Source: Escherichia phage glasur
Length of the DNA stretch: 42,507 bases
Sequence record: MN850583.1
Strand: one strand, 5' to 3'
The position numbers and the translations under genes were made by a program. The notes under the pieces were generated by a model, which did not search any database, was not told where the DNA came from, and saw only the letters and a list, made by a program, of their open reading frames with translations. Shown here one piece after another: positions 1 through 41,380 of this stretch (its first letter is position 1; each line of letters opens with the position of its first letter).

Positions 1-23
1 TATCACTATAGTCACTTTCATAA
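1..23 (-). promoter_or_regulatory. Inverted exact copy of the 23-nt phage-promoter-like element (TTATGAAAGTGACTATAGTGATA on the minus strand), ending exactly at the window boundary
   Basis: Reverse complement of 1-23 is identical over 23 nt to 20845-20867. It matches the T7 promoter core ACTATAG in the same register. Orientation points out of the window. Confidence 0.45.
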
Positions 24-29
24 TTATCT

Positions 30-128
30 AATGATTACAGTAACTTATAACCTATCTGATAACGGTATCTATCTTATGCAATAACCTATTCAATCAAATA
101 TTTATTCTCAATGATTACAGTAACTTAT
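30..128. repeat. Two copies of a 19-nt direct repeat AATGATTACAGTAACTTAT (30-48 and 110-128) in the AT-rich left terminal region
   Basis: Read directly from the sequence; the copies are 80 bp apart and lie upstream of the early promoters. Confidence 0.7.
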
Positions 129-160
129 CCACTATTTGAGCTATTCAGTGAAAATAATTC

Positions 161-190
161 TTGCAAGTCTGATTAGCTTTATGCTGTAAT
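161..190 (+). promoter_or_regulatory. Host sigma70-type early promoter (TTGCAA-N18-TGTAAT with TGn extended -10)
   Basis: -35 TTGCAA at 161-166, -10 TGTAAT at 185-190 preceded by TGc. First of four similarly built promoters, analogous to the T7 A1-A3 arrangement. Confidence 0.5.
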
Positions 191-263
191 TCATCTCGCC
201 GGGTAGCAGAACATCGCTACACGGTGGCAAGACGGTAACACTGCTCTTTAACAATCTGGTGTG

Positions 264-292
264 TTGACAAGGCAAGCTCACTATGCTGTAAT
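264..292 (+). promoter_or_regulatory. Host sigma70-type early promoter (TTGACA-N17-TGTAAT, extended -10)
   Basis: Consensus -35 TTGACA at 264-269, 17-nt spacer, TGcTGTAAT with -10 at 287-292. Confidence 0.65.
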
Positions 293-400
293 GCTTCCAG
301 TCAGCCAGACAAGCCAAACAGTCATGGATAAAGACGTTAAAACCCTCGCAGGCTAACTGGTACGGTTTAATCATCTCAGAACGGGCGCTGATTAAAACGG

Positions 401-429
401 TTGACAGGATGAAACGAGTATGCTGTAAT
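401..429 (+). promoter_or_regulatory. Host sigma70-type early promoter (TTGACA-N17-TGTAAT, extended -10)
   Basis: TTGACA at 401-406, 17-nt spacer, TGcTGTAAT with -10 at 424-429. Confidence 0.65.
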
Positions 430-479
430 GCACACCAGATTGACAGGCAGCAAGCCAGTCAGTCAGAAGTAAAAAGTAG

Positions 480-508
480 TTGACACGCTGAATACGATGT
501 GATGTAAT
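480..508 (+). promoter_or_regulatory. Host sigma70-type early promoter (TTGACA-N17-TGTAAT)
   Basis: TTGACA at 480-485, 17-nt spacer, TGaTGTAAT with -10 at 503-508. Confidence 0.65.
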
Positions 509-986
509 CAGCACCGAGTTGAAAGGTTGCAAAACAACCTGCTCTGAGTGAACGTAAACAGGCCACGTAGTGTCTCGGCCTCATGGGTATCCGGCGCAGC
601 TAGGAACTGGTGAGGGCATCGCTGAAAAGCAACGGTATCGCAACATTGCTAACGCCGTAGGGGTAGCGCCCGATGCAAGGGAACGGAGAAGCGCGATAGA
701 CGCAGCGCAGTATCAGCACAATCCCAAACGTCTTATAAGGCGCGGAGTATAGCGGGTAGGTAGTCAAACGGCTTGTTAGCTGGCAACGGTGAGCAAGATA
801 CGCGACGGACTGCTGGAAGACTCCTGAGAGTGGATGCAGACAATATCCATGGCGCGAAATGGGCGGGGCGATTTTTCAGGGTAGTGAATCCGACAAGCCA
901 ATCAATGCCACTGAGTGCAGACTGTACGGCGCGTCACAATGGGTTCACTATCCACCTGAAAATAGCCAACAACTGGAGAAATAACT

Positions 987-1379
987 ATGTACCGTATCTA
1001 TGCAAGCGCATACCGCCAGAACAATGCTGAGTGTGTTAATCTGGCGCTTCATTGCAAGGCACTGCGAACGGTGCAGGATATGTTCGGAGTGATTCCGGTC
1101 ACACTGACAGGCAAGTTCGACAATGCGTATGAGTTAAGCATGGTCTTCCCTGTCGATGGAATCTACGAAATCAGACAGGCTGTTAAGCTGTTCTGTAAAG
1201 CCTTTGAACAGGACTGCATCATGGTAGTGACCGACGACAATGATGCAATCTTCATGGATTCACCATATCCGGGCAAGCCTGCTGGCAAGTTTGTCAGCAA
1301 GACAGAAGCGGAGATGGAGGCCGGGCAGTTCACTGCTTGGACTTACGATGGTGAGCAATTTTGGGTAGTGGAGGCGTAA
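987..1379 (+). CDS. Early protein of unknown function (130 aa)
   Basis: ORF track 987..1379. ATG preceded by GGAG about 8 nt upstream. First gene after the roughly 470-nt leader. Confidence 0.7.
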   Translation: MYRIYASAYRQNNAECVNLALHCKALRTVQDMFGVIPVTLTGKFDNAYELSMVFPVDGIYEIRQAVKLFCKAFEQDCIMVVTDDNDAIFMDSPYPGKPAGKFVSKTEAEMEAGQFTAWTYDGEQFWVVEA

Positions 1380-1380
1380 T

Positions 1381-1452
1381 ATGTTCACTGCACTCTGTGT
1401 GATAGCGGCGGCGTGCTGGCTGATTGACCAGCGCCTGTCTAAGCGAGCCTGA
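1381..1452 (+). CDS. Possible small hydrophobic peptide (23 aa, MFTALCVIAAACWLIDQRLSKRA)
   Basis: Below the ORF-track size cutoff. ATG sits 1 nt after the upstream stop with GGAGG 7 nt upstream; the peptide is hydrophobic. Confidence 0.35.
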   Translation: MFTALCVIAAACWLIDQRLSKRA

Positions 1453-1453
1453 T

Positions 1454-1537
1454 ATGTGGGACTTACTGGTAGCGTTGTTCTGGTTCGTCTTTGCAGGCTT
1501 GTGGATTTACTGGTTGACTCGTCCCAAATTATGGTGA
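1454..1537 (+). CDS. Possible small membrane peptide (27 aa, MWDLLVALFWFVFAGLWIYWLTRPKLW)
   Basis: ATG 1 nt after the previous stop; one predicted transmembrane helix; only a weak ribosome-binding site. Confidence 0.3.
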   Translation: MWDLLVALFWFVFAGLWIYWLTRPKLW

Positions 1538-1543
1538 CTGCCT

Positions 1544-1565
1544 AATGCGTCTTGCGAGGCGCATT
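1544..1565 (+). promoter_or_regulatory. Intergenic RNA hairpin with TCTTGCGAGG loop (candidate RNase III or processing site)
   Basis: Stem AATGCG/CGCATT around loop TCTTGCGAGG. Same loop family as the hairpins near 2143, 2498, 2906, 5328, 5632 and 25635. Confidence 0.4.
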
Positions 1566-1601
1566 GTGAAGTAACCAACCAACAACCCGACGAGGTGTAT
1601 C

Positions 1602-2129
1602 ATGACTACTGTTAAATATACTGCATTCAAAGATGCTGCGGCGCTGGACAAAGCTATCGAAGCGACTGTCAAAAAGGCGCACTCACTCCGTAACGATATT
1701 CAGAACGTTGCGGTCGGTATTATCCTGCACGCTTACCATCACGGCGACTACACTCGTGCTGAGTCGTTCACTCACCAACTGGGTGATGGCGTCCGTGGTA
1801 AGGCGCTGGTTGACTGGTTCGTCCAGTTCGGCGGCCTGATTGTGGGTGAGCATGAAGATGGCAAATCCGGCTTCGTTGGCTGGAAGGGTGCCGACTTCAT
1901 CAAAGAGAACATCGACAAGGCGAAAGCCACGATGTGGTGGACTTGCAAGCCAGAAGCGGCCTTTGATGGCTTCGACCTGCAAGATGCGCTCGAAAAGCTG
2001 ATTGCCAAAGCTGAAAAGGCAATGAACAAGGCGAACGAGCTGCGCCACGAAGGGCGCGATGAGGATGCGAACAAGGTTGTCGTGCCTCAGAACGTGCTGG
2101 ACGGCCTGCGCAAGCTGAAAGCTGCGTAA
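1602..2129 (+). CDS. Early protein of unknown function (175 aa)
   Basis: ORF track. GAGGTG about 7 nt upstream of the ATG. Confidence 0.75.
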   Translation: MTTVKYTAFKDAAALDKAIEATVKKAHSLRNDIQNVAVGIILHAYHHGDYTRAESFTHQLGDGVRGKALVDWFVQFGGLIVGEHEDGKSGFVGWKGADFIKENIDKAKATMWWTCKPEAAFDGFDLQDALEKLIAKAEKAMNKANELRHEGRDEDANKVVVPQNVLDGLRKLKAA

Positions 2130-2142
2130 GCGGGATTGACTC

Positions 2143-2179
2143 AAGCCATCTTGCGAGGTGGCTTTATGGCAATTCTGCC
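2143..2179 (+). promoter_or_regulatory. Leader element: hairpin (loop TCTTGCGAGG) followed by GGCAATTCTGCC (copy 1 of 4)
   Basis: Stem AAGCCA/TGGCTT, then GGCA-N4-TGCC at 2168-2179. The same two-part element precedes the genes at 2561, 2965 and 3584. Confidence 0.5.
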
Positions 2180-2202
2180 CCAACAATTACGGAGTATCAT
2201 CC

Positions 2203-2487
2203 ATGACCACTAAAACTGTTCTGGCCTACGTCACCAAGAAAGGCGAAGAAGTGTACGGCTATGCTGTGTCTATCGACGGCGGCCAAAACTACCTGCATCA
2301 CGTTCGTGAAGAAGGTGAACCGACCGACCATGATGGCATTCTGGAAACGCTGAAAGGCATTCCGCTGCCGCACGAAATCATCTGTATGCTGGCTGGCCAG
2401 ACGGAAGATGACCTGCAACTGCGTCACGGCGATGACCTGACCATTCAGGGTATCGGCAGCTTCGAAGCTGACGTAGACGACGAATAA
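2203..2487 (+). CDS. Small acidic protein (94 aa), member 1 of the tandem acidic array (C-terminal SFEAD motif)
   Basis: Internal ATG of track ORF 2158..2487 chosen because GGAG lies 8 nt upstream. Acidic composition; ends GIGSFEADVDDE. Confidence 0.65.
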   Translation: MTTKTVLAYVTKKGEEVYGYAVSIDGGQNYLHHVREEGEPTDHDGILETLKGIPLPHEIICMLAGQTEDDLQLRHGDDLTIQGIGSFEADVDDE

Positions 2488-2497
2488 GCGTTGTCCT

Positions 2498-2535
2498 GCT
2501 GCATCCTTGCGAGGGTGCAGCGTGGCAATACTGCC
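2498..2535 (+). promoter_or_regulatory. Leader element: hairpin (loop TCCTTGCGAGGG) followed by GGCAATACTGCC (copy 2 of 4)
   Basis: Stem GCTGCA/TGCAGC, then GGCAATACTGCC at 2524-2535. Confidence 0.5.
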
Positions 2536-2560
2536 TTATTCCAATCTGAGGATTAATCCT

Positions 2561-2899
2561 ATGTCTACACTGAAACTGGTACTGATTTCTAACATCGCTG
2601 CTGACGCTTTCGACGCTGATGACGTGGCAGAACTGCAACCGCAGACCTTCGTTGGCTTCCAGCGTGATGGCGAACCGGGCGCACTGGTTGTTGGCCCGAC
2701 TGGTGGTGACGGCGCGGAAGAAGTGAAAGCGCACTTCCACGAGGGCAACCTGCCGCCTGCACTGCCGCTGCAACTGGTTGCCATGTTCGAAGGTCTGGCA
2801 TTCGTCAGCCCGGACAACCTGAAAGAAGCGACCATCGAAGTCATCGCTGAGTACGAGCAGGACGGCGACGACGATGATGACGTGGACTTCTCTGCGTGA
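2561..2899 (+). CDS. Small acidic protein (112 aa), member 2 of the tandem acidic array (poly-Asp C-terminus)
   Basis: ATG at 2561 with TGAGGA upstream, inside track ORF 2507..2899. Ends ...EQDGDDDDDVDFSA. Confidence 0.65.
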   Translation: MSTLKLVLISNIAADAFDADDVAELQPQTFVGFQRDGEPGALVVGPTGGDGAEEVKAHFHEGNLPPALPLQLVAMFEGLAFVSPDNLKEATIEVIAEYEQDGDDDDDVDFSA

Positions 2900-2905
2900 T
2901 ACCTT

Positions 2906-2943
2906 ACTGCCTCGTTGCGACGGGGCAGTGCGGCAATCATGCC
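2906..2943 (+). promoter_or_regulatory. Leader element: hairpin (loop TCGTTGCGACGG) followed by GGCAATCATGCC (copy 3 of 4)
   Basis: Stem ACTGCC/GGCAGT, then GGCAATCATGCC at 2932-2943. Confidence 0.5.
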
Positions 2944-2964
2944 CAACCTAACTGGAGATTTACC

Positions 2965-3246
2965 ATGGCTACAATCAACGTGTATTCCCTGAGCAACGGC
3001 GGTCTGGCATTCATCGCTGGTGATAAGGTAGACGAAGCGCCGTCGCTGGGCGTGACGCCGAAACCGGAAGCCAGCCGTGATGATGTTATCGCGGAAGTCA
3101 AGGGTGCGCTGGAAGACCTCGGCGGTCTGCTGTTCGTCCTGAATGGTGGCAAGCTGTCGGTTGAAAAGCTGGACGCGCTGGAACCTGTCTTTGTTGAGAG
3201 CTTCGAAGCTGACAACATCGACCTCGCTGCTTTCGCTGACGCCTAA
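2965..3246 (+). CDS. Small acidic protein (93 aa), member 3 of the tandem acidic array; clear paralogue of the gene at 3584
   Basis: ATG at 2965 with GGAG upstream. N-terminus MATINVYSL..., central LGGLLFVLNGG and C-terminal SFEAD match the 3584 product. Confidence 0.7.
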   Translation: MATINVYSLSNGGLAFIAGDKVDEAPSLGVTPKPEASRDDVIAEVKGALEDLGGLLFVLNGGKLSVEKLDALEPVFVESFEADNIDLAAFADA

Positions 3247-3284
3247 GCATAACCCGAAACCCACAACCAAAGAGGACAATCAAC

Positions 3285-3515
3285 ATGGCTAAGTTTGAAC
3301 TGGTACGCTTCATTGACCCGAACGATGGCGAAGAAACCTTCGCGCAGTTTGCTGATGACCGCTCGCTGGTCGCCATCTACAACACTGAGCGCACGGCGCG
3401 GCGCTGGTTCAAGGAAGATGAAGACATGGACAGCATCGAAGAAGCGCTGGCTATGCCGGGCTACGCTGAGGCTGTCGAGGCAGCACTGAAAGGCGAAGTC
3501 GTAGCGACTGCGTGA
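3285..3515 (+). CDS. Small acidic protein of unknown function (76 aa)
   Basis: ORF track. AGAGGA ribosome-binding site upstream of the ATG. Confidence 0.7.
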   Translation: MAKFELVRFIDPNDGEETFAQFADDRSLVAIYNTERTARRWFKEDEDMDSIEEALAMPGYAEAVEAALKGEVVATA

Positions 3516-3522
3516 TTTCTGT

Positions 3523-3561
3523 CAGCCCATCCATAGCGGTGGGCTGTAGGGCAATCATGCC
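3523..3561 (+). promoter_or_regulatory. Leader element: hairpin (7-bp stem CAGCCCA/TGGGCTG) followed by GGCAATCATGCC (copy 4 of 4)
   Basis: Hairpin at 3523-3546, then GGCAATCATGCC at 3550-3561. Confidence 0.5.
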
Positions 3562-3583
3562 ACAACAACTGAGGGTATACACC

Positions 3584-3892
3584 ATGGCAACTATCAACGT
3601 TTTCAAAACTATCACTGGCTCACTGGTATTCGTAGTGGGTGAACTGCGTGAAGATGCACCAATCGTTGGCGTGTCTCTGCGTGAAGGGGCAACCGAGGCT
3701 GACGCCATCGCTGAGATTCGTCAGAACATTGAGAACCTCGGCGGCCTGTTCTTCCTGCTGCAAGGTGGCAGCCTGAACCTCGCTAAGTTGCAGGAGCATG
3801 AGCCTGTGCTCGTGACCAGCTTCGAAGCGGAAGACGTAGACGCCAGTGACTTCGAAGCCAGCCGCGCTGACGAAGAAGAAGCAGGCGAGTAA
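3584..3892 (+). CDS. Small acidic protein (102 aa), member 4 of the tandem acidic array; paralogue of the gene at 2965
   Basis: ATG at 3584 with GAGGG upstream. MATINVFKT..., LGGLFFLLQGG, SFEAEDVDASDFEAS and an acidic tail. Confidence 0.7.
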   Translation: MATINVFKTITGSLVFVVGELREDAPIVGVSLREGATEADAIAEIRQNIENLGGLFFLLQGGSLNLAKLQEHEPVLVTSFEAEDVDASDFEASRADEEEAGE

Positions 3893-4001
3893 TGAGCGCC
3901 ATCGAGGTGGCACTGATGTTGGGCTGTCATGCAGGTATTGGCAGCCTCGTCATCTACATCGTTGGCGCGGCACGCAAATCATACGATAGGAGAACCAAGC
4001 T

Positions 4002-4178
4002 ATGAAACTTGCAGTATCGCGCAGCGGTGCAAGCCATGCGGCACACAAGTTGCACTTCCTGTTCCACTCGCTGTACCTTACAGCGGCTGCGATGGAGGGT
4101 CACTTGTTCTACAGCCTCATGGCTGGCGGCACCTTACTGTTCATGGTTGGCACGGCGGTGCTGGGCAATGAACATTAA
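4002..4178 (+). CDS. Possible small membrane protein (58 aa)
   Basis: ATG with strong AGGAGA 8 nt upstream and a hydrophobic C-terminal half. Alternative overlapping frames (3892..4005, 3929..4171, 4201..4341) cannot be excluded. Confidence 0.35.
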   Translation: MKLAVSRSGASHAAHKLHFLFHSLYLTAAAMEGHLFYSLMAGGTLLFMVGTAVLGNEH

Positions 4179-4405
4179 TCTGTTACAACGGGTCAAGGGT
4201 ATGGAGCGTCGGCACTGGGAGACGGCCATCATCCTTAAGGTAAGCATAAGCGCTGGACTTGCTGCTGCTTATTTCCTGCCAACCACCGCAGCAATAGCCG
4301 TTGGTATCAGCACCAACCTGCTATGGTTGTGGAAGTTGTAAGCAGTGGATTACTCAAGGCTGTCCAGCGGGTAACCTTTTTGAAATCCATTGACGAGAGG
4401 GGAGC

Positions 4406-4744
4406 ATGGCACTACATCGAGTGAAGGTAATGCGTGGGCCTGACTTCGAAGACGGACAAGAGATTGCTGCATTGCAGTACCGCTTGCCGTCAGGTCAGGA
4501 GGGGCTGGTCATCATCGACCAGATTGAAATCATGGGTGAGCACATGCTGATTGCTGATGCCACCGATGAGCAAATCATTGAGCGCTGCAAGGCATACGCC
4601 GGGGGCAGACCGTTCATCATCGACCTGATGAATGACCAGCACATCAATGCTGATGGTTCGCTGCTGTTCAAGGCGTGGCTTCATGCTCTCACAACAATCT
4701 ACGAAGGGGAGATGTATCTCTTTGGAGTAGGCACCGAGGGTTAA
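4406..4744 (+). CDS. Early protein of unknown function (112 aa)
   Basis: ORF track. Strong GAGAGGGGAG ribosome-binding site. Confidence 0.75.
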   Translation: MALHRVKVMRGPDFEDGQEIAALQYRLPSGQEGLVIIDQIEIMGEHMLIADATDEQIIERCKAYAGGRPFIIDLMNDQHINADGSLLFKAWLHALTTIYEGEMYLFGVGTEG

Positions 4745-4746
4745 TC

Positions 4747-5061
4747 ATGAAAGTAAGCAAAGGATATCTGTTCGTGCTGTTGATGCTGGCTACCCTGTAT
4801 CTCAGCACATGCCACATCGCACTGGCTGCTGATGTGGAGAAGGTGCATTTGGATGCGTATGACGTACCGCTGGGCGCACCTGATGGACAGGTGTACTCTG
4901 CTTGCGTCATTGACCTACGCAAAGGTGGCACTGTCAGCACACTGGCCTACGTTGGTGAGTGTGAGGATGTGCTGCCACACCTGAAAGAAAAGCTGGAGCA
5001 TGATGGCGTGACCACCATCGTGACTCTCTCAATCAACGGTCATAACATCAACCTAACGTGA
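4747..5061 (+). CDS. Predicted secreted small protein (104 aa) with N-terminal signal peptide
   Basis: ATG at 4747 with GAGGG upstream. N-terminus MKVSKGYLFVLLMLATLYLSTCHIALA-ADV has a hydrophobic core and an A-x-A cleavage site. Confidence 0.6.
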   Translation: MKVSKGYLFVLLMLATLYLSTCHIALAADVEKVHLDAYDVPLGAPDGQVYSACVIDLRKGGTVSTLAYVGECEDVLPHLKEKLEHDGVTTIVTLSINGHNINLT

Positions 5062-5069
5062 GGTTTTAA

Positions 5070-5321
5070 ATGAGCACTCAAGCTAAGATTGTAATTCTGC
5101 GCAACGACTATGGCCGTCCTACTCCGTTCGGCACCTTCTGTCCGTTCCTCGATACCATTGAGGGTAAAGAGTACGATGTACTCATCCTCGAACCGGGTGA
5201 GGTGGACGCCGAAGGGGATGAAGTTGACAAGCGCTCGGTCAGTTTCCGCGATGAAGTGGGTGACTTAGCTGGCGCACACATTGACTACCATGAAGGTAAG
5301 TCATTCAAGTTCGTCGAGTAA
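5070..5321 (+). CDS. Early protein of unknown function (83 aa), acidic
   Basis: ORF track. GAGG about 10 nt upstream. Confidence 0.65.
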   Translation: MSTQAKIVILRNDYGRPTPFGTFCPFLDTIEGKEYDVLILEPGEVDAEGDEVDKRSVSFRDEVGDLAGAHIDYHEGKSFKFVE

Positions 5322-5327
5322 TAATCT

Positions 5328-5351
5328 ACAGCCTCTGCTTGCGGGGGCTGT
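5328..5351 (+). promoter_or_regulatory. Intergenic RNA hairpin (stem ACAGCC/GGCTGT, loop TCTGCTTGCGGG)
   Basis: Lies directly after a stop codon and upstream of the next ribosome-binding site; same loop family as the other early hairpins. Confidence 0.4.
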
Positions 5352-5379
5352 GTCACTAACAAATAAACGAGAGGCAAAC

Positions 5380-5625
5380 ATGGCTAAGTATGACGTATAC
5401 AAAGACGGCGAAGGTGACTGGACTATCGTACCGGAAGGGCAGAAGATTGCAGCCCCGGTCGATGTGATTGCAATGAACGGCGCGGCGGCTGAGACACTGG
5501 CTGATGTGCAGCGCATCGCAACCACCAAGCGTGCAGGCTTCGAAGCTAACCGCACGCATGTCAAGTCGCAGGCTGTCATCAATCGCTTCGGCCCGTATGA
5601 ACTGGCCGGGACTATCGAAGTGTGA
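5380..5625 (+). CDS. Early protein of unknown function (81 aa)
   Basis: ATG at 5380 with GAGAGG upstream, inside track ORF 5281..5625. Confidence 0.65.
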   Translation: MAKYDVYKDGEGDWTIVPEGQKIAAPVDVIAMNGAAAETLADVQRIATTKRAGFEANRTHVKSQAVINRFGPYELAGTIEV

Positions 5626-5631
5626 TAAGCT

Positions 5632-5656
5632 ACTGCCCCTGCGTGCCGGGGGCAGT
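5632..5656 (+). promoter_or_regulatory. Intergenic RNA hairpin (8-bp stem ACTGCCCC/GGGGCAGT, loop TGCGTGCCG)
   Basis: Read directly from the sequence; sits between two genes. Confidence 0.4.
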
Positions 5657-5684
5657 GTCATTATCAAACGATGGAGGTAACATC

Positions 5685-5969
5685 ATGGTGCTGGCATCTG
5701 AATCAATCATTGAGCACGCTGCTGATATCCGGGCGGCGGTTGAAAAGCGCGGGGTCGCAGCTACCCGTGGTCATCTCTCTGGCAACGGTGGCCTGCGTGG
5801 TCACAGCGTAGGCGGTGTGTTCCCCTGCGTTATCTTTGCTCGTGGCAATCCTAATGTGAAGCTCGACTGGTGCTTCCTCACACCAGCGGGTGATGAGTTC
5901 GATGGCTTCATTAGTTATGAGGATGCGTATGCAGCCGCGCAAGAATGGCTGGAGAAAAGAGAGGTGTAA
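5685..5969 (+). CDS. Early protein of unknown function (94 aa)
   Basis: ATG at 5685 with GGAGG upstream, inside track ORF 5622..5969. Confidence 0.65.
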   Translation: MVLASESIIEHAADIRAAVEKRGVAATRGHLSGNGGLRGHSVGGVFPCVIFARGNPNVKLDWCFLTPAGDEFDGFISYEDAYAAAQEWLEKREV

Positions 5970-5970
5970 C

Positions 5971-6264
5971 ATGAGCAGAAGTGCTAAGTGGGATGCGCTG
6001 GTACAGTGGGTGAAGGATAGCTTTGGGCCACCGCCTACCCCTGACCACGATGACTCGCCGTTCCAATACGTCGAGAAGAAAACGCAGGAGCTTAAGCTGG
6101 GCGACTACGTTGTAGCATACGGTGGATACATCCAGCGCATCGGTGCCGTTGAGTATGATGGCAGCCGACTGGTTGTAACCAAGCTGGGGCATAGCCCTGA
6201 ACGTGAATGGCAGGCGTTTGAAGACGACGAGTTCACAATCCGCACACTGAAAGAAGGAAAGTAA
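5971..6264 (+). CDS. Early protein of unknown function (97 aa)
   Basis: ATG at 5971 with GAGAGG upstream, inside track ORF 5890..6264. Confidence 0.65.
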   Translation: MSRSAKWDALVQWVKDSFGPPPTPDHDDSPFQYVEKKTQELKLGDYVVAYGGYIQRIGAVEYDGSRLVVTKLGHSPEREWQAFEDDEFTIRTLKEGK

Positions 6265-6266
6265 TC

Positions 6267-6782
6267 ATGGCTATTGACTTTAAATTATTCAACGCCGAGC
6301 AACTTGAAACTGTCAAGTCTCTGGCTGAGTTCATCGACAACCACCCGGAGCTGAGCGAACTGGTTGAGTTCAAGGGTGGCTACCTGCCGAAGCAAAGTTA
6401 CATCGGCGCGGTGCGTAAAGGTCGTGAAGGTATGCTGGATATTATTCCGCAGACCAGAACCGGGGCGCTGCTGGCACGCAACGTCAGCGTGCTGATTGGC
6501 ATGAACGTGAAGCGTGCCAGTGAGCAGGGCAATGCGGCTGAGGTTGAGACGCTGCGCCTGACGGGTACGCTCGCAGCTAAGGCCATGTCGGAACCGGACA
6601 TTGCCGAGCGCTATCACGACTGGTACATGGCGTGCGCTAATGTGCCAAGCGATATCAGTGAGACGACGCTGGGCCTGCTGTTCGTCGGTGAGTTCATCGA
6701 CGCAACCATCCGTGCAGTCAGCGGTCAGGTGGGTGAATTAATTCAGGCAATGCAGCAGGCCAAGAATGCAACCCGTCACTAA
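6267..6782 (+). CDS. Protein of unknown function (171 aa), last gene of the early module
   Basis: ORF track. AGGAA ribosome-binding site. Confidence 0.75.
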   Translation: MAIDFKLFNAEQLETVKSLAEFIDNHPELSELVEFKGGYLPKQSYIGAVRKGREGMLDIIPQTRTGALLARNVSVLIGMNVKRASEQGNAAEVETLRLTGTLAAKAMSEPDIAERYHDWYMACANVPSDISETTLGLLFVGEFIDATIRAVSGQVGELIQAMQQAKNATRH

Positions 6783-6800
6783 GCTCACCGTAACCAAATC

Positions 6801-6824
6801 ACCCACCGGATTATTCTGGTGGGT
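6801..6824 (+). terminator. Hairpin at the early/middle module boundary (stem ACCCACC/GGTGGGT); possible terminator or processing site
   Basis: 7-bp stem with 10-nt loop just after the stop of the 6267 gene and upstream of the promoter-like element at 6971. There is no U-run, so this is not a canonical intrinsic terminator. Confidence 0.3.
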
Positions 6825-6970
6825 AGTTGATAAGCTGCAACCAAATAAACCTTTGGCTGTGCGTGATACAAAGTGGGAAGCCGAGAGTAAACTCGAAGAC
6901 CTTCAACGTATTATGCGGAATGTTATTCCAGCTTAGCCATCTACTCATGCCAGTTATTATTTAGCTGGCA

Positions 6971-6993
6971 TTATGAAGGTGACTATATTGGAC
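6971..6993 (+). promoter_or_regulatory. Phage-promoter-like element, variant copy (TTATGAAgGTGACTATAtTGgAc)
   Basis: 19/23 identical to the 20845-20867 element and contains GTGACTATA. Placed directly upstream of the first gene of the replication module. Confidence 0.5.
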
Positions 6994-7007
6994 AACCCGG
7001 AGGAAAT

Positions 7008-7208
7008 ATGTTTCGTGTATTAATGTTATTCGCACTTGTCGTTATATTGTGGGGCGCGTTATGGGTAGGTGTTGCCTATTTCATTCAGCCCTACATTGGC
7101 GAACAGCTTACCTCTGTAATTGGTACGCTGCTGGGCTTTGTTGTTGGCGCAGTTGGTATGACCAAGTGCATTGACATTGGCTGGAGTAAGGGGTGGGTGA
7201 AATGGTAA
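7008..7208 (+). CDS. Small membrane protein (66 aa, two predicted transmembrane helices)
   Basis: ORF track. GGAGG ribosome-binding site. Hydrophobic segments LMLFALVVILWGALWVGVAYFI and VIGTLLGFVVGAVGM. Confidence 0.65.
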   Translation: MFRVLMLFALVVILWGALWVGVAYFIQPYIGEQLTSVIGTLLGFVVGAVGMTKCIDIGWSKGWVKW

Positions 7209-8350: not shown

Positions 8351-9616
8351 GTGCTTGACAAGCTGTTGTTAACGGTGATGCGCGAGCGCGGGAAGTTCAA
8401 CTCCCTGCGACACGCCATCCCGGAAGATACGATGAGCCAGACCACGAGCTATATGCTCAAGGCTTACGGCTCATACTTTGATGCGTTCCCGGACAGTGAC
8501 TACATTGACATTGACACGCTGGGTACACACGTTCGTTTAAAGACAGGCAGCACGCCTGAACAGATGGCAGCCTTTGATTCGTTGTGCTCGCAGCTTCGAG
8601 AGTACAAGCCAACGAAGGAACAGAAGGAAGGTGTGCTTGACCAGCTCGTCGAGTTGGATACCGCTGGCCGTGCTAACCTGCTAATGCAGAGGTACGACAA
8701 TGGTGAGGAACTGGATATTATCTATGAGCTGGGCCGTCTTGCTGAGGGCGCACGTCGCAGCCGGGGGCAGTCATCTGTCACTGATTACGTGGACGATGAT
8801 GTGGTTGATATTCTCAACCGGACGGATGATAATCACGGCCTCAAGTTCGGTCTGCTCTGCTTGCAAGACAGCGTTCGCGTACTTCTACCCGGCGACTCCG
8901 TTGCCATCGGTGCTCGACCTGACAGCGGAAAGACTTCCTTCATCGCGTTTAACCTTACGCGAATGGCGGCGACAGCAGCGAAGCTCTATCCGGGCAGGCC
9001 AATCCTCTGGTTCAACAACGAGGGGCAGGGCATCAACATCATCCCGCGCATCTACCAAGCGGCGCTCAACTGCACGCTCCCGGAACTGAAAGAGCTGGGA
9101 GAGGACAGGGCTAAGCTGCACGCTGCGTATGCCAAAGCGCTGGGTGCGCCAGCCAACATCATCCGTGTGAAGGATATGCACGGCGCGTCGCTGGCGAAAG
9201 CTGAGCAGGTTATCGAAGCGATGAACCCATGCGTTGTGGTGTGGGATATGTTGGCGAACTTCAAGCTGTCTGTCTCCGATGCCAACAGCAACAAGGCGTC
9301 GCAGGTTGAGCAGCTATGGCAGGAGGTACGTGAGCTGGCCGTGCGCCACGACTTCGTATCAATGGCCACGGTGCAGGTATCAGCCGATGGCAAGGATGAT
9401 ATGTTCCCTGCGCTGGATGCACTCAAGGATTCCAAGACTGGTATCCAAGGTGCGACTGATGTTATCGTCATGCTCGGCAGCGTGGATGACCCATCGCTGG
9501 CAGCGCGGCGCGGCGTCAGCACTCCGAAGAACAAACGCCAGATTGCTGGGCGTCCATCCAACGTGCGGTCGCAGGTTCACTTCTTTGCTGACCGCTGCCA
9601 ATTTGAGGATATGTAA
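8351..9616 (+). CDS. DnaB-like replicative DNA helicase (T7 gp4 helicase-domain type)
   Basis: Walker A GARPDSGKTSF and Walker-B-like VVVWDM; 421 aa. GTG start with GGAGAG upstream. Confidence 0.75.
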   Translation: MLDKLLLTVMRERGKFNSLRHAIPEDTMSQTTSYMLKAYGSYFDAFPDSDYIDIDTLGTHVRLKTGSTPEQMAAFDSLCSQLREYKPTKEQKEGVLDQLVELDTAGRANLLMQRYDNGEELDIIYELGRLAEGARRSRGQSSVTDYVDDDVVDILNRTDDNHGLKFGLLCLQDSVRVLLPGDSVAIGARPDSGKTSFIAFNLTRMAATAAKLYPGRPILWFNNEGQGINIIPRIYQAALNCTLPELKELGEDRAKLHAAYAKALGAPANIIRVKDMHGASLAKAEQVIEAMNPCVVVWDMLANFKLSVSDANSNKASQVEQLWQEVRELAVRHDFVSMATVQVSADGKDDMFPALDALKDSKTGIQGATDVIVMLGSVDDPSLAARRGVSTPKNKRQIAGRPSNVRSQVHFFADRCQFEDM

Positions 9617-10272: not shown

Positions 10273-10945
10273 TGCCGAAGCTAAGCGCGTGTGGGCAGAA
10301 GATATCTGCCGTCTGCTGCAATCCGAAGAACTGAACTTCGTGGTTGCCGGGGGAGGGGCAAGGGATACCGCGCTGGGTGTTGAGCCGAAGGACTACGACA
10401 TTGTAGTCTTTGGTTGGGGTGGTGATGTGAGCCGTGTGGCTGGCCGACTGGACTGGCTGGACTCCAGACTGGAGGACTACGCCAAGCAGAACGAGCTGGC
10501 GTATGAGTACATGCCGAGCTATCACGATGCAGCAGAGGGTGGCGACTTCGGCTCCCGTCTGTGGGGTGTGTATAAGATTGGCCCGGTCGATGTGATTATC
10601 AGTAAGTGCGGGTGCTGGTCGCAGGTACTGAACGAGTTCGACTTCAACCTGAACCAGTTCTACTTCCCGTCCAGCATCCCGCGTTACTCCGGCCAGTACA
10701 GCCGCGACCCCGGCGAGTTCATGGCGTACCCGTATGAGCCGAACCTGACTGCCGAAGATGTGCAGTGGTTCCCGGCGCTGGCCAGTCTGGTAGAAAGCTA
10801 CGATGACCTGCTGACTCTCCGTGTCTGCCGACCGGATGCCAGCCTGAGTCGTGTGGCCTACATGCTGGAGAAGCACGAGAAGTATCTGCCAGCCATTGAA
10901 GCATACGTTAATCGTATGCCCGACCACTTAGGTGGCAAAGCATAG
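10262..10945 (+). CDS. Nucleotidyltransferase with Pol-beta-type head domain of the CCA-adding/poly(A) polymerase class (227 aa)
   Basis: Motif FVVAGGGARDTALGVEPKDYDIVVFG matches the GGxxRDxxLGxxxxDxD signature of class II tRNA nucleotidyltransferases. ATG at 10262 with AAGGGGA upstream, inside track ORF 10121..10945. Confidence 0.6.
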   Translation: MISNAEAKRVWAEDICRLLQSEELNFVVAGGGARDTALGVEPKDYDIVVFGWGGDVSRVAGRLDWLDSRLEDYAKQNELAYEYMPSYHDAAEGGDFGSRLWGVYKIGPVDVIISKCGCWSQVLNEFDFNLNQFYFPSSIPRYSGQYSRDPGEFMAYPYEPNLTAEDVQWFPALASLVESYDDLLTLRVCRPDASLSRVAYMLEKHEKYLPAIEAYVNRMPDHLGGKA

Positions 10946-10955
10946 CGGGGGATTG

Positions 10956-13421
10956 ATGGCTATTCGAGCACAGATTATCGACGTTGAAACTGAGAACCAC
11001 GAGTGGTATGGGGAGCTGGCATCACCTCGCTGCCCTGACAACTACGTGGTGATGCAGGGACAGCGCGACTGTGTGCTGACCAAGGATGGCTGGGAGTTCT
11101 ACAAGCGTGAGGAATATCGGTACGCATCCCGTGAGGATTGGCTGGCGAACAAGAGCCTGCACCTCCACCCGGATACGAACATACTGGTTGCACACAACGC
11201 GCCGTATGAACTGAGCTGGTGGTTCGAGCATTACGGTGATGAGTTCAAGGCGTTCCTCTTACGAGGTGGCCGTGTATTCTGTACCGCGTATGCTGAGTAT
11301 CTGCTGACACACCAGCAATCCCAGTACCCATCCTTGAACGAGACAGCACCGAAGTATGGTGGTACTCACAAGGTGGATGCAGTCAAGGCAATGTGGGAGT
11401 CAGGTTATCTGACCAGCCAGATTGACGCTGAGCTGCTGAGCGAGTATCTGTCCGGGCCGTCCGGGGATATTGAGAACACGACCAAGCTGTTCGTTGGTCA
11501 GTGGGCAGAGCTGACGAAGCAGGGCATGTTGCAGATGGCACTGACCCGCTTCGAAGGTATGCTCATGTGGGCGTACATGATGCACTCCGGTCTACACGTT
11601 GACCGTGAGGTAGCAGAGCGTAACCGCCGTGAGTTGCAGGATTCAATCAGTGGGTTAACCGAGACACTGATGGGCTACCTGCCTGCCGACATGCCAAGTG
11701 AAGCGCGTGAGCAATTCAAGTTCACGTCTGCTTATCACATGAGCGCATTCGTGTTCGGCGGCGTGATGAAGTACAAGGCGCGAGTCGAGCGCCGGGATGG
11801 AGATGGCAATCTCATTTACGTGAAGGTGGATGCACCACTGTTCAAGCGTGGCAAGGACAAGTGGCTCAAGCATACCAGCGAGTGCGAGTGGGATGATGAG
11901 ACTGGGTTGTGGTATGACCCGGTTGAGAAGGTACACCAGACCATCTACTCCAGCGGGAAGAACAAGGGTGCGCCCAAGTTCGAGAAGTTGGCGACCGATG
12001 AGGTGGACACCAAGTGGGGTGAGGTACTGTTCCGGTTGCCCGGTCTGCTGCGTGTGCAGGACAGACGAGCGCGGGAGATTGCCGACAACCTTGAATGGGA
12101 AGACCCGAAGCGTCCGGGTGAATATCTCCGGCGCACTGGTGACTGGGTAGGTAAGCGCAAGCTGGCTGACGGTTCTCCTGTATTCAGTACGGCGGGTGAG
12201 GTGCTGGACATTCTGGCAGCTCGTAAGATTCCCGGCGTCGTGGAGATTGCTGACCGGGCCAAGGCGCAGAAAGACCTCGGCACCTACTACCTCAGCGAGA
12301 CGTTTGATGATGAGGGCAACGTGACTGGCCAGTCGGGGATGATGCAGTTCATCCAGCCGGACAGCATCGTACACCACACCATCAACATGACCGCGACTGA
12401 GACGACGCGATTGTCATCTCAGCGACCGAACAGCCAGAACCTGCCACGTAAAGGTACGAGTAAAGTTAAGCAGATGTTCACCTCTCGCTTTGGCGAAGGT
12501 GGCCGCATCGTTGAGGCTGACTACTCGGCACTGGAAGTGGTGGGGCTGGCCGGGTTCAGTAAGGACAAGAACCTGATTCGTGCATTGCTCGATGGTATCG
12601 ACATGCACTGTATGCGATTGTCTGCTCAACTCAATGAGCCATACGAGGACGTGCTTAAGAAGTGCAAGGATGAATCCCATCCTGACCATGCACGATACAG
12701 TCAGATGCGTACTGACATTAAGCCCAAGGCGTTCTCCTATCAGTATGGTGCAACAGCGCGAGGCATTGCCTACTCGACTGGTTGCTCGGAGGAAGAAGCA
12801 CAGGCGTTCATCGACAACGAGAAGGGTCTGTTCCCGGAAGTTGAAGAATGGTTCGACGCTGTAATCTTCCCCGCCGTTGAGCGTAGTGGACAGAGCAACG
12901 TGTTCAAGGAACAAGATGAGAACGGACGGTGGCAGGTGTATCGCCGTGGTCACTTCCGCTCGCCGGGTGGAACTTGTTATTCATTCCGTCAGTATGAGAA
13001 ATGGAACAAGGCGGCGCGTGCTTATCTGATGGAATACAAACCAACCCAAATGCGTAACTATCCTATTCAGGGTGAGACAGCGTTTTGGGTGCAGGGAATT
13101 GGTGGGCTGCTGTTCCGCTGGCTGCTGGCCAATGACTTCTTTGGTGGGCGTGTGGTTCCCATCAACCAAGTGCATGACGCATTCTATTTCGACGTGGCAC
13201 CTGACTGTCCTCACGAGTTCTTCGTTGGACTCAAGGCAATCATGGAATCCATCCCGGAATATTACAACCACATCTGGCCTGAATATAACCTGACAGTTCC
13301 GTTTCCGGCAGAGGTAGAAGCTGGGCCAAGCATGTACGAAAAGCATCACGTAGAGACGACAGCCGAAGAAGTGCTGGAGTTCAAACGTAACTTCCTGACG
13401 AGTAAGGGTATTAGCATATGA
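10956..13421 (+). CDS. Family A DNA polymerase (T7 gp5-like) with 3'-5' exonuclease domain
   Basis: Exo I motif IIDVETEN, polymerase motif A DYSALEVVG, motif B KAFSYQYGATARG and motif C VHDAFYFD. The ATG at 10956 is preferred; the track's GTG at 10932 is possible. Confidence 0.92.
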   Translation: MAIRAQIIDVETENHEWYGELASPRCPDNYVVMQGQRDCVLTKDGWEFYKREEYRYASREDWLANKSLHLHPDTNILVAHNAPYELSWWFEHYGDEFKAFLLRGGRVFCTAYAEYLLTHQQSQYPSLNETAPKYGGTHKVDAVKAMWESGYLTSQIDAELLSEYLSGPSGDIENTTKLFVGQWAELTKQGMLQMALTRFEGMLMWAYMMHSGLHVDREVAERNRRELQDSISGLTETLMGYLPADMPSEAREQFKFTSAYHMSAFVFGGVMKYKARVERRDGDGNLIYVKVDAPLFKRGKDKWLKHTSECEWDDETGLWYDPVEKVHQTIYSSGKNKGAPKFEKLATDEVDTKWGEVLFRLPGLLRVQDRRAREIADNLEWEDPKRPGEYLRRTGDWVGKRKLADGSPVFSTAGEVLDILAARKIPGVVEIADRAKAQKDLGTYYLSETFDDEGNVTGQSGMMQFIQPDSIVHHTINMTATETTRLSSQRPNSQNLPRKGTSKVKQMFTSRFGEGGRIVEADYSALEVVGLAGFSKDKNLIRALLDGIDMHCMRLSAQLNEPYEDVLKKCKDESHPDHARYSQMRTDIKPKAFSYQYGATARGIAYSTGCSEEEAQAFIDNEKGLFPEVEEWFDAVIFPAVERSGQSNVFKEQDENGRWQVYRRGHFRSPGGTCYSFRQYEKWNKAARAYLMEYKPTQMRNYPIQGETAFWVQGIGGLLFRWLLANDFFGGRVVPINQVHDAFYFDVAPDCPHEFFVGLKAIMESIPEYYNHIWPEYNLTVPFPAEVEAGPSMYEKHHVETTAEEVLEFKRNFLTSKGISI

Positions 13422-17437: not shown

Positions 17438-17966
17438 ACGTGGCGACCACTTCTGCCTGTGCATCGAGCGCGACTACAAAGACGCGCTGCTTAATGAGCT
17501 GCGCGATGCTGGTGTAGTGCTGACATACGACGAGCCTTACGATGTGCCGAACGACAGTCGTGATTACTACACCTGCGTATACAATGGCAGTACCAAAGTG
17601 CTGGTGCTTGAACCATTCGAAGTGCAGGCCGTGGAGAAATCATTCATCCCGGTAGAGCCGGAAGCTGGGCCGGGCGGTATGAAGTATGACGGCGGTAAGC
17701 CACGCATGGCCCTGCTGCTCGACGGCTGCCCGAATGCACTGGAGGCTGTGGCCAGCGTGCTGACCTTCGGCGCTCAGAAGTACGCAGCTCACTCATGGCA
17801 GACTGTGCCGGAAGGTGAGGAACGTTACAAGTCAGCGCTGCTCCGGCACCTGACTGCGGTGGGTAAGGGTGAGGAACTCGACCCGGAATCTGGCCTGCAC
17901 CATCTGGCGCACGCTGCTTGCAATGCACTGTTCATTCTCGAACTGGCTTTAAGGAAAACTAAATGA
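17430..17966 (+). CDS. Putative MazG-like nucleotide pyrophosphohydrolase domain protein (178 aa)
   Basis: C-terminal half (KYDGGKPR...VLTFGAQKY...RYKSALLRHL...ESGLHHLAHAACNALFILE) resembles, from memory, the phage dATP/dGTP diphosphohydrolase (MazG-like) domain. N-terminal half is of unknown type. Confidence 0.45.
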   Translation: MSKRGDHFCLCIERDYKDALLNELRDAGVVLTYDEPYDVPNDSRDYYTCVYNGSTKVLVLEPFEVQAVEKSFIPVEPEAGPGGMKYDGGKPRMALLLDGCPNALEAVASVLTFGAQKYAAHSWQTVPEGEERYKSALLRHLTAVGKGEELDPESGLHHLAHAACNALFILELALRKTK

Positions 17967-18142
17967 CTGCTTTACTTTACGTGATTGCTCTGGCATGGTT
18001 TGTATACTTCACGCTGGCCTGCGTGAGCGCCTGTAAATCGTACAACCTAAGCCACTACCCGGAACGCGCTGGGTCTGCTGGCTTCGTGGTGTGGGTGCTG
18101 CTGGCTGTACTGCCAACGTGGTTCATTTGTTACTTGGCATAG
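17963..18142 (+). CDS. Small membrane protein (59 aa, two predicted transmembrane helices)
   Basis: Below the track cutoff. ATG with AAGGAAA upstream. Hydrophobic LLYVIALAWFVYFTLACV and FVVWVLLAVLPTWFICYLA. Confidence 0.5.
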   Translation: MTALLYVIALAWFVYFTLACVSACKSYNLSHYPERAGSAGFVVWVLLAVLPTWFICYLA

Positions 18143-18147
18143 GAGAT

Positions 18148-18384
18148 ATGATGAGCAGATACCAACGAGCCATTGAGGACACCGTGGTTGAGAAAGGTGT
18201 GTGCGGGGCGTGCCACGGCTGTGGCACATTCACCAGCATGACCATTCGACACGAGCTTGTCCAAACTGAATGTGAAGCCTGTGGTGGCACGGGCGTGACT
18301 GACCCGGCACTGCAACGCTCAGTGCTGCGGGAACAAGGTATGCGCTGCCAAGTGCAGCCGGGCTATGACCAACCAACGGAGTAA
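18148..18384 (+). CDS. Small zinc-finger protein with two DnaJ-type CxxCxGxG repeats (78 aa)
   Basis: CGACHGCG and CEACGGTG motifs. ATG with TAGGAGAT upstream, inside track ORF 18091..18384. Sits immediately upstream of the RNA polymerase gene. Confidence 0.6.
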   Translation: MMSRYQRAIEDTVVEKGVCGACHGCGTFTSMTIRHELVQTECEACGGTGVTDPALQRSVLREQGMRCQVQPGYDQPTE

Positions 18385-40539: not shown

Positions 40540-41028
40540 ATGAAACTGTCTCGGCTTATGGCCGGGGCAGTCTTGTCTCTGTCCTTGACATTGACGGGCT
40601 GCTCCGCAACAAGCGCACTGTCTGCTGTAACCTCGGCTGTCTCTCCCAATAAGCCGGAACTAACGGCACAGGTTGGCGCAGAGAACACGAAACAAGGCAT
40701 CGGCTTGACTGCGAAACAGTCCGACGAAACGAAGGTCGGTGACGTATCTGGTAACGCGCAAGTGGATACCGCTAAACAGGGTAGTGATTCGACGACTGTG
40801 AAGGACGTCACAGGAGGCTCTGTAAACGCTTCTAAGCAGGGGTCGCAAATGACCCAAGGGAACGTACAGGCTAAAACTGTTGTCATCTCACAGAGCGACC
40901 CACGCAGCCTCCTATGGGCTTTCGGCATGGGTCTGACCTGTATCTTAGGCTTGGTAATGTGGTTTGTACCATCTCCGTGGAAAAAGAAGGTGAAAGATGA
41001 CGGAAGCAAAGAAGGAGCCAGCTCCTAA
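40540..41028 (+). CDS. Putative unimolecular spanin (N-terminal lipoprotein signal plus C-terminal transmembrane helix)
   Basis: Lipobox LTLTGC at the N-terminus, Thr/Ser/Lys-rich periplasmic region, C-terminal helix LLWAFGMGLTCILGLVMWFV followed by basic PWKKKVKD. Adjacent to the endolysin gene. Confidence 0.5.
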   Translation: MKLSRLMAGAVLSLSLTLTGCSATSALSAVTSAVSPNKPELTAQVGAENTKQGIGLTAKQSDETKVGDVSGNAQVDTAKQGSDSTTVKDVTGGSVNASKQGSQMTQGNVQAKTVVISQSDPRSLLWAFGMGLTCILGLVMWFVPSPWKKKVKDDGSKEGASS

Positions 41029-41380
41029 CATCCACTCGCGTATGGGCGCTGTGGAGGCTCGTATGCAATCCGTAGAAACTCGCCTCGACAAACACGAGAT
41101 TCAAATTGCCAACCTTGAGAAAGGTGACGCTGCTATGCTGGCCAAGCTATCGGAGAACGACTCCCGGTGGCTGGAGATTCAGCAGCAGCTCCGTGTCGTC
41201 GAGCAAATTCAGGACATTCAAAAGACTATGAGCCACATTGGTAAGCTGTTTACTTACGCGGCTCACGCCGTCAAGTGGTGTCTCCTGACCGCTTCACTCG
41301 TTAGCGGTATCTATCTTGCGGTCAAGGCTGGCGACCTCACGGCGCTCCAGTCCTTTATCACAACGATTATGGGGATGTAA
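40997..41380 (+). CDS. Holin-like or lysis-regulator membrane protein (127 aa; coiled coil plus C-terminal transmembrane helix)
   Basis: ORF track. AAGAAGG ribosome-binding site; hydrophobic WCLLTASLVSGIYLAVKAG near the C-terminus. Assignment mainly from position immediately upstream of the endolysin. Confidence 0.35.
   Translation: MTEAKKEPAPNIHSRMGAVEARMQSVETRLDKHEIQIANLEKGDAAMLAKLSENDSRWLEIQQQLRVVEQIQDIQKTMSHIGKLFTYAAHAVKWCLLTASLVSGIYLAVKAGDLTALQSFITTIMGM

Follow-up and report, generated by a model that had tools for sequence, protein, structure and literature searches.

The early region of the genome of Escherichia phage glasur (MN850583.1; 42,507 nucleotides (nt), the whole of which is referred to here as the window) holds five very short open reading frames (ORFs), and the question it raises is whether such frames are genes and, if so, what their products would do in the infected cell. 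A preliminary description of this DNA had regarded them as translationally coupled frames for hydrophobic, single-helix peptides, of a kind that can mediate superinfection exclusion or inhibit host membrane proteins. Our results make it likely that the five frames are genuine genes for small inner-membrane proteins, expressed early and coupled to the genes upstream of them, and that the products of two of them, named here B and C, form a complex in the cell envelope.

Reading of the sequence and the ORF listing place all five frames at the positions described, on the plus strand. Two of them follow a gene for S-adenosylmethionine (SAM) lyase: m1 (1381-1452, from ATG to TGA, 23 amino acids (aa)) and m2 (1454-1537, 27 aa), the ATG of the latter lying within a TTG-initiated ORF at 1424-1537. 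The other three, A (3892-4005, 37 aa), B (4002-4178, 58 aa) and C (4168-4341, 57 aa), follow an acidic early gene of 102 aa (3584-3892, plus strand) whose stop overlaps the start of A. The geometry is that of coupled genes, with each start near or overlapping the upstream stop: a single nucleotide separates the TAA of the SAM lyase gene from the ATG of m1 and the TGA of m1 from the ATG of m2, A begins in a TAATG with a 1-nt overlap at 3892, B in an ATGA with a 4-nt overlap at 4002, and C, from its ATG at 4168, shares its first 11 nt with the end of B, so that the spacings are +1, +1, -1, -4 and -11 nt. Pairing with the anti-Shine-Dalgarno sequence amounts to -9.3 kcal/mol for m1, whose Shine-Dalgarno site is a GGAGG, -7.3 for B, -6.3 for C at 4168, -4.8 for A and -4.5 for m2, against a background mean of -2.9 kcal/mol. 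Over their best 15 residues, m1 and m2 reach Kyte-Doolittle values of 2.41 and 2.53, and a threshold of 2.4 is attained by just 3 of the 233 ATG-initiated ORFs of 20-60 aa on both strands of the window. The view of these frames as hydrophobic and placed for translational coupling is thus borne out by their hydropathy and by their stop-start geometry.

The frame for which the comparison with relatives is richest is m1, whose peptide, MFTALCVIAAACWLIDQRLSKRA, starts with a hydrophobic helix and ends in a basic tail. In an alignment of the spacer between the SAM lyase gene and the next gene, m1 is found in frame, 1-11 nt past the stop of the SAM lyase gene, in 13 of 14 relatives, being absent from HHU8 only; by tblastn it is detected in 18 GenBank records, and not one of these annotates it as a gene of its own, the corresponding entries reading 'none', lacking annotation or belonging to the overlapped SAM lyase gene. 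Three extra copies are present on IMG/VR and JGI contigs (L028-L030), including the diverged MFAALCIIAAGCWAFDQYLNRRKG. The ratio of non-synonymous to synonymous substitution rates (dN/dS) is 0.09-0.24 between pairs in the frame of m1 and 0.6-10 in the two other frames, and the variable columns fall at codon positions 1, 2 and 3 in the proportion 9/5/15. In addition, serine 20 is encoded by TCT in one clade and by AGC elsewhere, a switch between codon families that one would expect to see only where the amino acid is under selection, and residues A4, L5, C6, C12, W13, D16, Q17 and L19 are invariant. Since the frame remains open across relatives with a low dN/dS, a serine switch and invariant residues, m1 is, as judged from this conservation, a real and genus-wide microprotein gene. 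In a different lineage (L016, about 3715-3795, and L017, about 2880-2960), the SAM lyase stop is overlapped (GTGA) by another hydrophobic ORF of 24 codons, (M)SWWQVVILLTVAATAAYYQFFKE, alike in position and unrelated in sequence to m1; in both loci the genes A, B and C lie directly upstream of the SAM lyase gene.

The second frame of this group, m2, encodes the hydrophobic 27-aa peptide MWDLLVALFWFVFAGLWIYWLTRPKLW and is borne on an 84-nt insertion that is present in the window and in the phages forsur, usur, ROV85 and LF82-23, the other relatives lacking exactly those 84 nt. All three substitutions observed are synonymous in the frame of m2 (p about 0.008), while two of three and three of three are non-synonymous in the other frames. 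A search of IMG/VR and JGI metagenomes by way of the SAM lyase found no further copies. This small sample, which makes m2 the weakest case of the five, supports its being a coding sequence, gained as a recent 84-nt gene insertion. The SAM lyase, m1 and m2 unit is closed by a conserved stem-loop at 1537-1572 of the plus strand, AAUGCGUC-UUGCGA-GGCGCAUU, identified by folding, whose arms co-vary among relatives in a compensatory manner (AATGCG/CGCATT versus ATAGCG/CGCTAT).

The overlapping frames of the second group, which the preliminary description had considered impossible to resolve by eye, are separated by comparison with phage Lidtsur, 82% identical to the window over 3892-4341. Against Lidtsur, A has a dN/dS of 0.40-0.41, B one of 0.08 and C one of 0.125, the last value dropping to 0.066 when only 4201-4338 is considered; A falls to 0.18 against the metagenomic locus L018, and its other frames contain stops or give ratios above 1 in most comparisons. 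The substitutions in B are distributed over codon positions 1, 2 and 3 as 8/1/21. The frames of A, B and C can be told apart because their rivals, namely an 80-aa frame at 3929-4171 and a 110-aa frame listed as 4009-4341, carry stops in Lidtsur and show dN/dS above 1, and both were rejected as genes. Together with m1 and m2, these frames thus stay open in relatives and evolve under purifying selection, which was the check that the preliminary description had proposed. The peptide of A, MSAIEVALMLGCHAGIGSLVIYIVGAARKSYDRRTKL, has an acidic N-terminus, a single hydrophobic helix and a basic tail.

As for C, the start had been placed at 4201, an ATG internal to the frame listed as 4009-4341 and equivalent to codon 12 of the ORF beginning at 4168. 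This assignment is probably wrong. The ATG at 4201 is preceded by a poor and mis-spaced ribosome-binding site (-4.7 kcal/mol, at a spacing of just 1 nt), and it is replaced by GTG in Lidtsur and by an isoleucine codon in the homologues P0019 and P0022; the upstream ATG, at 4168, and the 11 codons that it heads remain open, in frame and similar in relatives. On this conservation of the upstream ATG and loss of the internal one, C more likely starts at 4168. In the lineage of Pantoea phage LIMElight, C begins at the position equivalent to 4201, and the N-terminal extension is therefore lineage-specific. A programmed frameshift that would fuse B and C was also considered and rejected, the junction varying by lineage between an overlap of 11 nt, an overlap of 4 nt and a gap of 1 nt.

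AlphaFold2 predicts two helices for B (residues 7-31 and 34-55; predicted local distance difference test score (pLDDT) 76.5) and for C (residues 3-36 and 39-56; pLDDT 80), both of which are thus modeled as two-helix hairpins. In this regard, the proposal of single-helix peptides holds for m1, m2 and A, each with one hydrophobic segment, and has to be given up for B and C. Taking frames and hydropathy together, we regard m1, B and C as very probably real, translated membrane proteins and A as probably one, while for m2 this is somewhat more likely than not.

B and C are two new small protein families. Among 5.8 billion proteins searched, B is represented by 17 clusters and C by 9, and many of these come from contigs some 42-44 kb long. 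A hidden Markov model search of 1.84 billion representatives gave 22 matches for B and thereby added 20 small B-like proteins. The B of the window aligns end to end with both sets (E 1e-19 to 1e-31 for the 17 close clusters and 1e-14 to 4e-4 for the 20 further proteins). Members of this family, of about 52-74 aa, have a basic N-terminus and the motif H-x2-Y-[LF]-x-A-[AV]-x2-E-G-H-[GL]-x-Y-S followed by a hydrophobic helix, a pattern to which the B of the window conforms; H15, H18, F19, H22, Y25, L26, E32, G33, H34, L35 and S38 are invariant in 18 sequences, and in a distant set of 25 sequences H22 and Y25 are still invariant and H34 and Y37 nearly so. The family of C, of about 48-61 aa and encoded directly 3' of B, is characterized by R-x-H-x-E-T...K...Y-F-L-P...G...N-L-x-W-[LI]-W-K, which the C of the window matches with RRHxET...YFLP...NLLWLWK. 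Across the 9 clusters 17 positions are invariant, among them R14, H16, E18, T19, K24, S28, Y35-F36-L37-P38, G46, N50, W53, W55 and K56. The possibility of B and C being paralogues was discarded (hhalign probability 0.04).

The three genes recur as a set. Direct homologues of A, B and C are found in forsur (forsur_35 and forsur_36, 98-100% identity to the window), in Lidtsur (QBZ71512-QBZ71514, 86%) and in LIMElight, which belongs to another genus and whose adjacent and overlapping ORF4 and ORF5 correspond to B and C (51-54% by tblastn); gene order is the same, the starts overlap alike, and all are labelled 'hypothetical protein'. A is annotated as forsur_35 and in Lidtsur, C is unannotated in forsur, and the A-like ORF is unannotated in LIMElight. 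A homologue of C adjoins B in LIMElight, in the loci L016, L020, L022 and L034, and also in the distant L024 and L025. In 10 contexts B is preceded by an A-like mini-ORF of one helix and a basic tail that abuts or overlaps the upstream stop, whatever the upstream gene; these A-like sequences are diverged and can be aligned around a central Gly. In one IMG/VR locus (L037, 3001-3173) the B homologue is split by a frameshift between intact A-like and C genes, which could be either an assembly error or a decaying copy.

Gain and loss of this set can be followed at the level of single junctions. The segment 3892-4405 is wholly missing from Kc261, RZ4, ROV85 and most other relatives, in which the flanking genes stand 2 nt apart. 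In usur, two GCTGGGC heptamers bound a deletion of about 1.1 kb (junction at 3516-3614 of L003, the usur locus, as compared with 3044-3051 and 4156-4166 of the window) that has removed A and B and left C 100% retained; it joins the first 29 codons of the gene at 2965-3246 to the last three codons of B, and the start of C is still overlapped. Conversely, L018 has A and B and has lost C. No homologue of B was found in 185,579 bacterial and archaeal species genomes, and there is therefore no cellular or prophage context to lend it a function. On this distribution, A-B-C is a phage-restricted accessory cassette, mobile between phage genera. Its non-coding tail (4343-4395, plus strand), with about 2 differences in 54 nt against Lidtsur, is more conserved than the coding parts, the cassette as a whole diverging by about 18%; the tail contains a modest predicted stem (z = -0.09) and a TTGACG at 4389, and is missing along with A-B-C from Kc261, RZ4 and ROV85.

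The location of the mini-ORFs in the early region, also part of the preliminary description, is sustained by the anatomy of the genome. A regular-expression scan of the whole window finds TTGACA/TTGCAA-17 nt-TGTAAT sites confined to 161-510, where four tandem sigma-70-like promoters stand at 161, 264, 401 and 480 of the plus strand; three of these four elements share the longer block TATGCTGTAAT. A generic promoter and terminator scan gave fewer sites than in shuffled sequences and missed the promoters at 161-510 because their -10 element is TGTAAT. As these are the only such promoters and the gene for a single-subunit RNA polymerase (18384-20819, Pfam) lies far downstream, at 18.4 kb, we infer from this arrangement that the mini-ORFs are situated in the early region transcribed by the host polymerase. 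In agreement with an early placement, the first phage promoter annotated in LIMElight sits downstream of ORF4 and ORF5. The left end further contains a near-perfect 20-nt direct repeat, aatgattacagtaacttat, at 31-50 and 111-130, upstream of the promoters.

Stable two-tier stem-loops (z = -2.6 to -3.7) are found at 2130-2178, 2487-2532, 2897-2939 and 3514-3556, following the genes that end at 2129, 2487, 2899 and 3515. Similar structures can be read by eye at about 5330-5360 and 5630-5665, and most early stem-loops have a UUGCGA-type loop and the 3' flank GGCAAUnnUGCC; an Rfam scan of 1-7000 gave no RNA family. The early mRNA of phage T7 is processed by RNase III at stem-loops between genes, and by analogy the early stem-loops look like RNase III processing sites of the T7 style or sites that stabilize the mRNA. 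The likeness to the T7 class I operon also includes the four tandem promoters at the left end, like A1-A3, the anti-restriction gene in first place and long stem-loops after most early genes; we know of no homologues of these mini-ORFs in T7 itself. Fold and promoter scans found no stem-loop or promoter inside the SAM lyase-m1-m2 group or the 3584-3892-A-B-C group. Each group of mini-ORFs would then share a processed mRNA with its upstream gene, which fits translational coupling, and the two groups, SAM lyase-m1-m2-stem-loop and acidic gene 3584-3892-A-B-C, would each have their mini-ORFs at the 3' end of an mRNA segment headed by a larger early gene. To judge from this geometry, m1, B and C would be expressed from usable Shine-Dalgarno sites of their own, while for m2 and A, with their weak sites and with start codons no more than a base away from the preceding stop, termination and reinitiation would be the main route of translation.

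As to what the products would do, the reading that we favor, that of early, coupled inner-membrane proteins, has them made in the first minutes of infection. Peptides m1, m2 and A would be single-pass, with the basic C-terminal tail predicted to lie in the cytoplasm, and B and C, probably with A, would form a hetero-oligomer at the inner membrane. That B and C work together in this way is suggested by the pair staying adjacent even at 33-50% identity. The complex would have an accessory early role, the likeliest being to block the entry of superinfecting DNA or to neutralize a membrane-anchored host defence. The two functions named in the preliminary description, exclusion and inhibition of host membrane proteins, are both plausible; superinfection exclusion specifically is a tentative assignment, made by analogy, which we would not put forward as the probable one.

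The function itself is read from context, since no characterized homologue was found in Pfam, PHROG, NCBIfam, PADLOC, PDB or fold libraries, one of the points that weigh against the favored interpretation. None of the five peptides matches Pfam-A, PHROGs v4, NCBIfam or PADLOC at E <= 0.01, the best sub-threshold results being phrog_14261 'membrane protein' (E 0.013, over 19 residues of A), NF047332 (E 0.013, well short of its cutoff) and phrog_9199 (E 0.11, m2). Foldseek searches of the B model against PDB and of the C model against BFVD returned generic helical hairpins only (best E 2.7 and 0.67), and profiles of B and C against PDB sequences gave a transmembrane segment as sole match (E 0.05), which for its part speaks for membrane character. 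Homology to exclusion proteins was likewise not found: PHROGs of that category gave no match, and no fold in BFVD was significantly similar. A literature search that took in Bonnellvirus, LIMElight, small proteins of phages and membrane proteins made early turned up no functional work on these genes. On the same side of the balance, helix 1 of B is weakly hydrophobic and His-rich and may lie on the membrane surface instead of spanning it, the sequence of A changes quickly, what unites its family being chiefly position and pattern, and m2 is limited to five near-identical genomes. Finally, altidsur, mellemsur, smaasur and other phages that lack A-B-C come from the very K-12 host on which carriers were isolated as well. 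This shared host, together with the loss of A and B in usur and of C in L018, indicates that A-B-C is dispensable and that its parts can persist alone.

A bolder and rather doubtful proposal goes further and takes A-B-C for an unrecognized, mobile, three-subunit inner-membrane device of lytic phages, with m1 as a second arm, directed to the membrane, of an anti-restriction module. Under this proposal, a heteromer of B and C, with its stripe of His and Tyr and its buried polar residues, would serve early in infection, within the first minutes, to bind or conduct ions or metal or else to block the route by which DNA enters, with the outcome that competitor phages are excluded or a membrane-based defence is disarmed; m1, which measures 23-26 aa throughout the genus, would be made in stoichiometric amounts with the SAM lyase. 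A separate reading, which we consider improbable, sees in B, with C, a metal or proton device whose His/Tyr stripe and EGH turn bind metal or haem or line a viroporin-like pore. In line with this notion are the invariance of H15, H18, H22, Y25, E32, G33 and H34 in the 18 sequences, the full (H22, Y25) or near (H34, Y37) conservation of four residues among the 25 distant sequences, the placing of the three His along a single face of predicted helix 1 by their i, i+3, i+7 spacing, and the invariant polar residues K24, S28 and N50 within the hydrophobic helices of C. The argument is one of pattern alone, however: H15 and H18 are not kept in distant homologues, there is no likeness to a known metal-binding or channel family, and ferritin-like fold matches (E >2) amount to a generic helical hairpin.

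About equally slim is the chance that translation itself is what matters, with m1 and m2, and perhaps A, relaying ribosomes to a stem-loop or to the next start and thereby tuning mRNA processing or downstream expression. Such a role would account for the start of each of these frames within one base of the upstream stop, for the last small ORF ending a few bases before the conserved stem-loop with or without m2, for the overlap of A with B, by which A could deliver ribosomes to B, and for an A whose sequence changes fast while its position is constant. It does not account for the conserved amino acids of m1 and the switch of serine codon family, nor for the design of A, one helix and a basic tail, being the same in all contexts; moreover, larger early genes likewise end at stem-loops, and the geometry is therefore not special to the mini-ORFs.

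With still less probability, B and C could be lysis-timing proteins of the holin, pinholin or antiholin kind, given that proteins of 57-58 aa with charged ends and two predicted helices recall what is generally known of class II holins, and that one weak fold match, at rank 34 (E 4.7), is labelled 2-TMS holin family. What weakens this idea is a lysis cluster complete by itself at 40.5-41.9 kb, with a spanin lipoprotein (40540-41028), a 127-aa membrane protein (40997-41380) and an endolysin (41380-41916): A-B-C lies at 3.9-4.3 kb, in the early region and about 36 kb away, and not beside the endolysin and spanin genes as a holin gene would. In addition, the cassette is missing from most relatives, neither PHROG nor Pfam gives a holin family match, and early expression of a holin would harm the phage. 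Least credible of all is that the frames are chance ORFs in spacer DNA, their hydrophobicity an artefact of base composition and never translated: the lack of any GenBank annotation for m1 and m2, the weak Shine-Dalgarno sites of m2 and A and the just three informative substitutions of m2 could be read in that way, but frames kept open under purifying selection up to about 18-25% nucleotide divergence, the third-position bias of B (8/1/21) and m1 (9/5/15) and homologues of B and C at 33-50% identity with invariant residues leave it conceivable for m2 only.

Small early phage membrane proteins of this sort are a familiar kind, and the favored reading of early inner-membrane proteins can be set beside known examples. 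T4 Imm and Sp, T5 Llp and HK97 gp15 are phage membrane proteins of superinfection exclusion or immunity. As these are generally known, they are small, located in the envelope, non-essential, early or constitutive, patchily distributed and fast-evolving, as the proteins described here would be on our reading; they show no detectable similarity to them in sequence or fold, and each acts as a single protein, in contrast to a three-gene set with its B-C pair. The bacterial small membrane regulators AcrZ, KdpF, CydX, MgtS and MgrB and the type I toxins Ibs, ShoB and TisB, which as a rule bind a larger membrane protein or perturb the membrane, resemble m1, m2 and A in having 19-50 aa, one hydrophobic helix and a short charged tail. 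Sequence similarity to the mini-ORFs is lacking (the NCBIfam scan was negative), and the latter are phage-encoded and coupled to an upstream gene, unlike the free-standing or antisense-RNA-controlled bacterial genes.

The genome in which these genes reside is, by its sequence relationships and gene order, that of a Bonnellvirus, a relative of T7 with an arrangement of the phiKMV type. A megablast of window 900-4800 matched Escherichia phage forsur (98.9% identity) and 18 further records, nearly all of them Autographiviridae of the genus Bonnellvirus (J8-65-like). Genes identified with Pfam further comprise a DnaB-like helicase (8351-9616) and a family A DNA polymerase (10932-13421). The SAM lyase gene (987-1379, plus strand) belongs to Pfam family PF23780, S-AdoMet_lyase (E 3.3e-27), and is forsur_29 in GenBank, 'anti-restriction SAMase'; given this family assignment, the label 'SAM-dependent methyltransferase' borne by its homologues in NC_048177, NC_025445 and PV660458 looks like a mis-annotation.

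Other early genes deserve mention. Very acidic small proteins are encoded in series at 2203-2487, 2561-2899, 2965-3246 and 3584-3892, of which 2965-3246 and 3584-3892 are paralogues (BLASTP 46% identity, E 7e-28). Several of the acidic early proteins have in common a C-terminal SFEA[DE] motif, and their copy number varies among relatives; they could be DNA mimics or anti-defence candidates. The ORF at 4747-5061 encodes an early protein of 104 aa without a Pfam match, whose signal-peptide-like N-terminus ends in LSTC, a possible lipobox; an exported product or lipoprotein would recall receptor blocking of the T5 Llp type, a possible analogy. The ORFs at 7008-7208 (66 aa, with a good GGAGG) and 17963-18142 (59 aa) have two strongly hydrophobic segments each and are probably further small membrane proteins. 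At the right end, an ORF of 171 codons (41985-42500), rich in Cys, Ala and Arg and of low complexity, is given as a hypothetical protein in forsur; several ORFs overlap there on both strands, and what is annotated as a gene may be non-coding sequence of the genome end.

No class of phage genes is annotated as poorly as that for small membrane proteins, and functions of anti-defence and host takeover concentrate in the early regions of T7-like phages. Our findings add to this class a gene, m1, that has been missed in every deposited Bonnellvirus annotation, a clear gain of a 27-codon gene through an 84-nt insertion, and a mobile three-gene membrane cassette in which the B-C pair is strongly conserved and a His/Tyr motif stands out; they also mend gene models, namely the start of C, the absence of C from the forsur annotation and that of the A-like ORF from LIMElight. 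Should A-B-C turn out to serve in exclusion or against host defences, a new family of such systems would be defined by it; otherwise, the result is a well-supported improvement of annotation. In either case, these mini-genes are concrete and cheap targets in phages that grow on E. coli K-12.

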